From Escherichia coli (GTDB taxonomy: Bacteria; Pseudomonadota; Gammaproteobacteria; Enterobacterales; Enterobacteriaceae): a stretch of 1,014 nt of DNA. The position numbers and the translations under genes are program-made. The stretch lies in assembly GCF_003334765.1 (NCBI RefSeq), contig NZ_QOWT01000090.1; one strand, written 5' to 3'. The notes below the pieces were generated by a model, which was given only the letters and a program-made list of their open reading frames with translations, was not told the DNA's origin and did no database searches. Every line of letters begins with the position of its first letter. The stretch's first letter is position 1. This document shows positions 1 through 1,014 of this stretch, in pieces.

Positions 1-136
1 CAGCATCCTGCAGTGGCGCAATATACTCACTGAATTCCTGGATGTAGAACTGTGTGGTGACGGTCTTCCAGCCATTCGGCTCCTGCTGTATCGAAGCATA
101 CCAGGCTATTTCAATATCGCTATGCTGCGGCAGCAT
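1..136 (-). CDS. Partial CDS (start codon at 136-134, continues past window position 1): tail-fibre-assembly (Tfa)-like protein, N-terminal 45 codons
   Basis: Minus-strand translation from ATG (complement of 134-136) is MLPQHSDIEIAWYASIQQEPNGWKTVTTQFYIQEFSEYIAPLQDA, open to the window edge. An in-frame TAA (complement of 137-139) lies directly upstream, so the ORF cannot start earlier. A Shine-Dalgarno-like AAGGGG (complement of 141-146) sits 4 nt before the ATG. The segment EYIAPLQDA resembles the conserved ..EHIAPLQDA.. stretch of lambda-type Tfa proteins as I recall them. Unverified by search; only 45 codons are visible. Confidence 0.5.
   Translation of the reverse strand, partial: MLPQHSDIEIAWYASIQQEPNGWKTVTTQFYIQEFSEYIAPLQDA
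123..132. repeat. Left copy of 10-bp exact direct repeat TGCTGCGGCA, lying inside the first codons of the minus-strand Tfa-like gene
   Basis: Plus-strand 123-132 tgctgcggca is identical to 894-903. With one 3-nt indel (GCA unit) the match extends to 123-136 versus 894-904, which includes the start codon on the minus strand. Confidence 0.6.
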
Positions 137-192
137 TTAACCCCTTGTAATTCATCGCCATAATTGATTTAATTCACAAATAAAACTATAAC
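137..192. promoter_or_regulatory. AT-rich divergent intergenic region between the minus-strand Tfa-like gene and the plus-strand methyltransferase; candidate sigma70-type promoter for the methyltransferase
   Basis: 56 bp at about 27% GC (15/56, hand count) between two divergent start codons. Best plus-strand candidate: -35 TTGATT (164-169), 17-bp spacer, -10 TATAAC (187-192). A weaker alternative is -35 TTGTAA (145-150) with -10 TTTAAT (168-173). Hexamer matches in AT-rich DNA are weak evidence. Confidence 0.3.
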
Positions 193-861
193 ATGGTGAA
201 ATTAATGAAAAAAAACACAGATGATGGGGCTAAAATTTACACACCACTTACCCTAAAGCTTTATGACTGGTGGGTTTTGGGAGTATCAAATCGGCTTGCA
301 TGGGGATGTCCTACAAAGGAACACCTTCTTCCACACTTTCTGGAACATTTAGGTAACAACCATCTGGATATTGGTGTTGGAACTGGGTTTTACCTTACTC
401 ACGTACCTGAGAGTAGTCTGATATCTTTAATGGATTTGAACGAAGCTAGCCTGAACGCGGCATCTACAAGGGCTGGGGAATCAAAAATTAAACATAAAAT
501 TAGCCATGATGTTTTTGAACCTTATCCCGCGGCGTTACATGGTCAATTTGATTCCATTTCCATGTTTTACCTTCTTCACTGCCTGCCTGGAAATATATCT
601 ACAAAAAGCTGTGTAATACGCAATGCGGCGCAGGCCTTAACTGACGATGGAACTCTATACGGAGCCACAATTCTTGGCGATGGAGTTGTGCACAATAGCT
701 TCGGTCAAAAACTGATGCGCATTTACAATCAGAAAGGCATCTTTTCAAACACAAAAGATTCCGAAGAAGGCTTAACACATATACTCTCAGAGCATTTCGA
801 GAATGTTAAAACCAAGGTTCAAGGTACTGTAGTAATGTTTTCCGCTTCAGGGAAAAAATAG
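193..861 (+). CDS. Class I SAM-dependent methyltransferase (Rossmann fold), substrate unknown; alternative start at 205 gives 218 aa
   Basis: Single long ORF in the provided track (222 aa, stop TAG 859-861). Residue numbers count from Met at 193. Motif I LDIGVGTG at aa 58-65 (nt 364-387). Acidic post-I residue D81 in SLMDLNE. Motif II GQFDSISMFYLL at aa 117-128 (nt 541-576). Motif III-like LTDDGTLYGATIL at aa 149-161. N-terminal aromatic segment YDWWVLGVSNRLAW precedes motif I. No DPPY/NPPY or PC/ENV motifs. Confidence 0.85.
   Translation: MVKLMKKNTDDGAKIYTPLTLKLYDWWVLGVSNRLAWGCPTKEHLLPHFLEHLGNNHLDIGVGTGFYLTHVPESSLISLMDLNEASLNAASTRAGESKIKHKISHDVFEPYPAALHGQFDSISMFYLLHCLPGNISTKSCVIRNAAQALTDDGTLYGATILGDGVVHNSFGQKLMRIYNQKGIFSNTKDSEEGLTHILSEHFENVKTKVQGTVVMFSASGKK
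195..199 (+). promoter_or_regulatory. Shine-Dalgarno-like GGTGA serving the internal in-frame ATG at 205
   Basis: GGTGA matches the GGUGA portion of the extended anti-SD complement and lies 5 nt before ATG 205-207. No SD-like sequence precedes ATG 193-195 (upstream is caaataaaactataac). Confidence 0.35.
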
Positions 862-915: not shown

Positions 916-1014
916 TTACTCCCTGACAGGGTTCGTAGGCCACTCAATATCAGGTGCAGTTGATGTATCAACACGGTTCAGCAACACCCGATACTTTTTC
1001 CAGGCTTCCAGCAA
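916..1014 (-). CDS. Partial CDS (C-terminal 32 codons plus stop; N-terminus lies beyond window position 1014): tail fibre assembly protein (Tfa) family
   Basis: Minus-strand translation entering at 1014 is [32 protein letters not shown], ending at TAA (complement of 916-918). This closely matches the C-terminus of phage lambda-type Tfa proteins as I recall it (..[33 protein letters not shown]). Recalled from memory, not searched. Confidence 0.65.

Follow-up and report, generated by a model that had tools for sequence, protein, structure and literature searches.

The intact form of the Escherichia coli prophage gene ybcY very likely starts at ATG 205, 12 nucleotides inside its annotated reading frame

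Two in-frame ATG codons stand at the beginning of a methyltransferase gene carried by E. coli prophages, and the question raised by this locus is which of them starts the protein and which promoter supplies its mRNA. The window that we analyzed is a stretch of 1,014 nucleotides from E. coli, and all positions below are counted from its first letter. Its longest open reading frame (ORF) runs from 193 to 861 and encodes 222 amino acids; RefSeq annotates this ORF, on the plus strand, as a class I SAM-dependent methyltransferase. A first-pass annotation, made from the letters alone, had instead favored the downstream codon because it has a ribosome-binding site, and had placed the likeliest transcription start between the two ATGs. 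The elements on which it relied were all found where it had put them, namely, ATG 193-195, GGTGA 195-199, ATG 205-207, TTGATT 164-169, and TATAAC 187-192, the last two being separated by a 17-nt spacer. These elements and their surroundings are as follows.

1 to 136, minus strand: 5' portion of a tfaX-like fragment of a tail-fibre-assembly gene that reads away from the methyltransferase gene, its start codon at 136-134
22 to 34, plus strand: -10-like hexamer TATACT (22-27, assigned by eye in this analysis) and transcription start site (TSS) of K-12
145 to 150, plus strand: candidate -35 TTGTAA of a putative promoter, its TTG invariant and always 17 nt ahead of the -10
165 to 173, plus strand: candidate extended -10 TGaTTTAAT, predicting a start at 179-181
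164 to 192, plus strand: promoter candidate TTGATT-17-TATAAC, also nominated by Shimada et al. 2014
193 to 204, plus strand: in-frame codons MVKL added by PGAP, most likely 5' UTR
195 to 199, plus strand: Shine-Dalgarno (SD) sequence GGTGA, 5 nt (200-204) ahead of ATG 205
205 to 207, plus strand: probable true start codon ATG, from homologous loci and the SD
205 to 861, plus strand: methyltransferase coding sequence as most likely translated, 218 amino acids plus stop
869 to 901, unstranded: strong hairpin in the interval where the methyltransferase and tail-fibre-assembly genes converge, -23 kcal/mol, z -5.2, 11-bp stem
916 to 1014, minus strand: 3' end of a tail-fibre-assembly gene (RefSeq annotation, E. 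coli 042)

The gene is the intact form of the DLP12 pseudogene ybcY (b0562) of K-12, which in MG1655 lies between tfaD and tfaX. Many E. coli chromosomes are 100% identical to the window, matches were found in 4,824 of 5,426 complete E. coli genomes, and the locus is also present in viable lambdoid phages. The K-12 and window alleles occupy the same locus, are about 99% identical in DNA, and have the same upstream region but for one base. Unlike the intact window allele, however, K-12 carries a frameshifting 2-bp deletion (an intact allele is found in strains such as E. coli 042 and NCTC86). This deletion, at window positions 207-208, falls exactly on the ATG 205 codon and abolishes it, and all that is left is a 9-codon ORF from ATG 193 (MVKLIKKHR, then stop).

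The identity of the neighbor at 1-136 is based on K-12, where tfaX is annotated at that place, and on E. coli 042, where the same sequence is a partial tail fibre assembly pseudogene. We also considered the minus-strand ORF at 1-136 as the transposon gene Urf2, which was ruled out by its annotation as a tail-fibre-assembly fragment. In Rfam, parts of both tail-fibre-assembly segments on the minus strand (1-113 and 959-1014) matched IS009 (RF02111) incompletely and below threshold, at model positions 1-108 and 144-199, so the sequences of this candidate sRNA family and of tail-fibre-assembly genes appear to overlap. A perfect 7-nt inverted repeat (ATGCTGC/GCAGCAT, 122-136) overlaps the minus-strand tfaX start codon; no other short repeat was seen near 137-216, and an Rfam search of 137-216 returned no known RNA element. 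RefSeq also lists a 45-amino-acid hypothetical protein, WP_001309429.1, on the minus strand at 806-943. It looks spurious, and its ORF overlaps the methyltransferase 3' end, the hairpin, and the tail-fibre-assembly gene.

As for the protein itself, the Pfam families Methyltransf_12/23/25/11/31 match residues 52-182, all of them generic methyltransferase domains, and the glycine-rich motif I, DIGVGTG, is invariant in the family. A search of NCBIfam gave nothing near its cutoffs, and the sequence matches in the PDB, to juvenile hormone acid methyltransferase and UbiG, were weak. Orthologues are found on the chromosomes of many genera, and relatives at 45-53% identity reach Pseudomonas, Dyella, Agrobacterium, and Acidobacteria.

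The sequence features around the two ATGs differ sharply. The 20 nt ahead of ATG 193 contain no G, and the predicted duplex energy with the 3' tail of 16S rRNA is -0.3 kcal/mol for ATG 193 versus -7.4 kcal/mol for ATG 205. When compared with 1970 control ATGs in related loci, the latter value lies in the best 7%, whereas the former is worse than 90%. The first-pass statements that the longest ORF begins without an SD and that GGTGA is well placed for ATG 205 are borne out by the energies. GTG 196, the remaining nearby candidate, was ruled out as a start, having no SD (+1.3 kcal/mol) and no conservation. SD pairing is also a property of the family, with a median of -5.4 kcal/mol over 42 non-redundant orthologue starts versus -2.5 kcal/mol for the control ATGs (Mann-Whitney p ~1e-10), and close relatives carry the SD variants AGGTGA and AGGA. 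A simplified thermodynamic initiation model, which we wrote for this analysis from a published formula, favors ATG 205 over ATG 193 by about 100-fold or more, a ratio to be read as an order of magnitude only.

Homologous proteins point to the same codon. Among 120 homologues, those of other genera, including Salmonella, Citrobacter, Enterobacter, Klebsiella, Yersinia, Erwinia, and Aeromonas, begin at the Met aligned with ATG 205, and this residue (M5 of the 222-amino-acid form) is an invariant column in an alignment of 41 homologues of 56-99% identity. Outside the E. coli prophage clade no MVKL-type extension is seen, and within it the extension varies (MVKL, MVKS, MVKP, MLKL, and MKS). Because the starts chosen by gene callers are not independent evidence, the orthologous DNA itself was inspected. 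In nearly every enterobacterial locus where the motif YDWWVL could be located, an ATG stands 19 codons ahead of it, and this ATG is often the sole start codon past the upstream in-frame stop; at locus L013, the stop is followed at once by the conserved ATG. The Salmonella orthologue L007 (88% identical) reads AAG-GTG-AAA-TCA-ATG, without ATG 193 and with the longer SD AGGTGA, while copy L003 (90% identical) reads AGG-ATG-AAA-TCA-ATG, its upstream ATG being shifted by one codon.

Variation among close copies was surveyed in 79 IMG/VR prophage copies whose protein is 99-100% identical from M5 onward. ATG 193 is absent from 10 of them, being replaced by ACG in eight and by ATA in two, and codon 4 is TTA, TCA, or CTA; across the E. 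coli sequences, the MVKL residues vary as L, S, or P. Four of the 12 bases at 193-204 are segregating sites (pi 0.079), compared with 28 of 654 in the coding sequence (pi 0.0047; third codon positions, pi 0.0107). Diversity at 193-204 is therefore about 17 times that of the coding sequence (Fisher test, p 0.0017 against the coding sequence and p 0.022 against third codon positions), in a set of copies chosen by identity over 205-858 and not mutually independent.

The downstream start is in fact already in use in the K-12 annotation, in PHROG 2132, and in the wider annotation of the family. The K-12 ybcY pseudogene feature, 582152..582806, corresponds to window 205..861 once the 2-bp deletion is taken into account (655 = 657 - 2). 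The phrog_2132 profile, which has 218 positions, is matched end to end, 1-218, by the 218-amino-acid form (E 7e-157); the family has no assigned function and so gives length and start information only. The 222-amino-acid form is that of RefSeq PGAP and of the phage ev243 record. Automatic annotation picks ATG 193 because it opens the longest ORF, an ordinary instance of a pipeline placing the start codon too far upstream. The supplement of the initiation-site profiling study of Nakahigashi 2016 holds no ybcY entry, and K-12 itself is without the ATG 205 codon.

The protein very likely has 218 amino acids and starts at ATG 205, a conclusion drawn from sequence comparison. The first-pass proposal of a 218-residue product beginning MKKNTDD is strongly supported by homologue N termini, upstream stops, and the loss of ATG 193, and further by SD conservation, the K-12 annotation, and the PHROG profile. 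Translation from ATG 205 would be positioned by GGTGA at 195-199, presumably acting as an SD, and ATG 193 would be a lineage-specific, dispensable in-frame ATG within the 5' UTR.

Could RefSeq nevertheless be right in starting the protein at ATG 193, with 222 amino acids? The codon opens the longest ORF and is PGAP's choice, it is kept in 69 of the 79 close copies, and it lies within transcripts from the TSS mapped at window position 34 in K-12 (see below). It has, however, no SD of its own at -0.3 kcal/mol, and the SD that does exist lies downstream of it and would put the ribosome on ATG 205. The codon is also lost in intact copies and orthologues, and MVKL is not conserved, all other genera beginning at M5. 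We regard this reading as highly improbable. A compromise, in which alleles with ATG 193 make a major 218-residue and a minor 222-residue form, has somewhat more to recommend it, given that any transcript beginning upstream of 193 carries both codons and that little base pairing is predicted in the A/U-rich leader ahead of ATG 193. Some initiation without an SD can take place on leaders that are rich in A/U and free of G, which makes a minor 222-residue isoform possible. Against this, the initiation model strongly favors 205, the extra codons at 193-204 bear no sign of selection, and the two ATGs are only 12 nt apart, so that initiating ribosomes would exclude each other. Use of both codons is accordingly judged quite unlikely, and ATG 205 as the start is preferred.

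The origin of the mRNA is a separate matter. The first-pass annotation had singled out TTGATT-17-TATAAC as the best promoter, a ranking that does not hold: under relaxed rules, four plus-strand candidates within 137-204 all score 9 of 12, so that it ties with three others. Two of the four tied candidates carry the TG of an extended -10, and TTGATT/TATAAC is not one of them. The relaxed-rule total for the window is 7, versus 4.1 +/- 1.9 in shuffled sequences, and is reached by 11% of shuffles. A consensus scanner found 2 promoter-like sites in the window versus 2.2 +/- 1.8 in shuffles; it leaves TTGATT/TATAAC unlisted because the last position of the -10 is C rather than T. In a 68-nt spacer of 26% G+C, matches to promoter hexamers are cheap. 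The scanner's only plus-strand site, TTAACC-16-CATAAT (137-164), was rejected as the family promoter, its -10 not being conserved (CATTAT, GAATTA, or GGATTA at the CATAAT position in close relatives).

The spacer has been examined before. Shimada et al. 2014 (PMC3946193) reported an RpoD holoenzyme genomic-SELEX peak in the ybcY/tfaX spacer, flagged H-NS binding there, and gave TTGATT-17-TATAAC for ybcY as a pick from sequence, not as a mapped start. Both hexamers are conserved in close relatives only. At the position of TATAAC, other genera have TATTAC, TGTTAC, AATAAC, TGTATA, AAATAG, TATTTA, AATGAC, or AGTTCA, none of which ends in T. Within E. coli, 60 of the 79 prophage copies have C at position 192 and 19 have T, the T allele forming a perfect TATAAT 17 nt past TTGATT, so this promoter may well fire in those alleles.

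A different layout emerged when orthologous upstream regions were anchored on the conserved ATG. The pattern TTGnnn-17-TGnT[T/G]TAAT precedes that ATG in 15 loci from nine genera (Escherichia, Salmonella, Citrobacter, Pluralibacter, Enterobacter, Klebsiella, Yersinia, Yokenella, and Buttiauxella). Invariant in all 15 are the TTG, the 17-nt spacer length, the TG, and T.TAAT, while the spacer sequence and the flanks vary; the distance from the end of the layout to the ATG is 30-34 nt. The window version, TTGTAA-17-(TGa)TTTAAT, matches at 9 of 12 positions plus the TG and predicts a start near 180; the SD would then lie within a leader of 25 nt. The supposed -35 of the first-pass candidate, TTGATT, overlaps the TG of this conserved extended -10.

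The layout resembles extended -10 sigma-70 promoters of the TGnTATAAT class: a TG stands one base ahead of the hexamer, a -35 with TTG is separated from it by 17 nt, and all of these positions are conserved here across genera. Unlike them, the window hexamer is TTTAAT, with T for A at -11. This T occurs at -11 of the conserved hexamer in every genus, where A is normally critical, and is odd for a promoter under selection. The conserved element may therefore be weak, activator-dependent, or not a promoter.

Transcription starts mapped in K-12 were taken from Kim 2012 and Cho 2014, which list for ybcY a sigma-70-assigned TSS at 582200 (-) in U00096.2, with 37 reads, corresponding to window position 34, and another at 581993 (-), with 5 reads, corresponding to window position ~243 inside the ORF. 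The printed flank of TSS 582200 ends at window position 34, which confirms the coordinate mapping. The K-12 v3 positions of the predicted starts are 582831, 582812, and 582840 (v2 = v3 - 777), and neither list holds a K-12 start near 180 or 199 or at 197-205; missing starts are weak evidence, given the shallow depth of both lists and the binding of H-NS at this locus. The TSS at 34 is inside and antisense to tfaX, and that at ~243 follows TAAAAT at 231-236; both are typical of pervasive initiation in AT-rich acquired DNA. In the K. pneumoniae part of Kim 2012, a search by sequence for the orthologue promoter returned a sole match, to an unrelated E. coli gene (pgaA).

The TSS at 34 shows that a transcript with both ATGs and the SD exists. 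RNA folding predicts an unpaired probability for the SD of 0.14 in the transcript from 34 versus 0.42 in one from 180, which suggests that the SD would be more occluded in the longer transcript. The TSS at 34 also bears on what the first-pass annotation held to be the refutation of its own reading, namely, transcript 5' ends upstream of 193 together with homologues whose conserved residues align with MVKL. Such a 5' end exists in K-12, but residues aligned to MVKL are found in no homologue outside the E. coli prophage clade; with the former found and the latter not, its interpretation is not refuted. Its idea of transcription from 199-200 fared less well, there being no start near 199 in two published K-12 TSS lists and no conservation of TATAAC across genera. 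A start at 199-200 would moreover leave GGTGA off the mRNA, so translation from ATG 205 cannot be put down to the SD and to a near-leaderless transcript at once.

The near-leaderless reading takes TTGATT-17-TATAAC as the working promoter, with a TSS at about 199-200 and ATG 205 read from a leader of 5-6 nt without an SD. Both hexamers are present at ideal spacing, the pair is kept in close relatives and reaches a perfect TATAAT in the 19 copies mentioned above, and the same pair was nominated in the spacer bound by RpoD holoenzyme (Shimada et al. 2014, PMC3946193), although that nomination came from sequence and not from mapping. Other observations weigh more heavily. A TSS at 199-200 would drop the SD even though SD pairing is family-wide, and other genera sometimes have a hexamer quite unlike a -10 (AATGAC or AGTTCA). 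Leaders of a few nucleotides are translated more poorly than truly leaderless or SD-led mRNAs, which counts against it as well. The TTG of its -35 is equally well explained as the TG of the conserved extended -10, and the two K-12 TSS lists are without a start near 199. Translation from so short a leader is in our estimation rather unlikely. Conservation of the SD requires a functional mRNA whose 5' end lies upstream of 195, and the best candidates for its start would be the cross-genus promoter layout, near 180, and the K-12 TSS at window position 34.

The extent of similarity to other loci may give insight into how the gene moves. The stretch that is similar to the loci of Salmonella, Pluralibacter, and Enterobacter runs from about 137-141, right past the tfaX start codon, to about 868, a few bases beyond the stop codon. 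Since homology with L003, L007, L010, and L011 covers only the promoter-like region and the gene, the gene and the 65 nt upstream of it appear to be one mobile unit. We tentatively suggest, on these alignments, that TTGnnn-17-TGnTTTAAT may function as a genuine promoter, perhaps a regulated one, and travel with the methyltransferase gene as a self-contained expression cassette (~137-868), a possibility that we rate at somewhat below even. The hairpin at 869-901 lies outside the shared block and is not kept with the gene in L003 or L007. It has no adjacent plus-strand T-run, which is why a terminator scan was negative. Its minus-strand sequence matches part of an Rfam model, the 3' end of the Shigella sRNA CssrB, but below threshold (36 bits versus a gathering score of 76).

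This arrangement is reminiscent of phage morons, cargo genes that bring expression signals of their own, such as lambda lom/bor and those of HK97, in that a non-structural gene lies between opposite-strand tail-fibre-assembly genes, with lower G+C upstream and a putative promoter element travelling with it. It differs from them in that the window hairpin has no T-run and is not carried along with the gene. A literature search on this phage methyltransferase as a moron returned nothing specific. Taken as a whole, our proposal is that the window gene is a lambdoid-prophage cargo gene of E. coli (a "moron") encoding a methyltransferase, that it would be translated from ATG 205 by way of GGTGA with ATG 193 dispensable, and that its mRNA would begin upstream of 195; we hold this joint reading with considerable confidence.

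In practice, the effect is a four-residue correction to RefSeq WP_000239881.1, a protein record used in the annotation of thousands of E. coli genomes, and the correction makes that record agree with the annotation of K-12 and with the other family members. It is relevant only to those who express, tag, or search proteomics data for the protein. The lesson is that, in AT-rich horizontally acquired DNA, matches to promoter hexamers should not choose start codons. More interesting than the start codon is the question of what this phage-borne methyltransferase, conserved from Escherichia to Pseudomonas, does. If the cassette is real, it would move between enterobacterial chromosomes and lambdoid phages, and lysogens would express the methyltransferase independently of phage late transcription.
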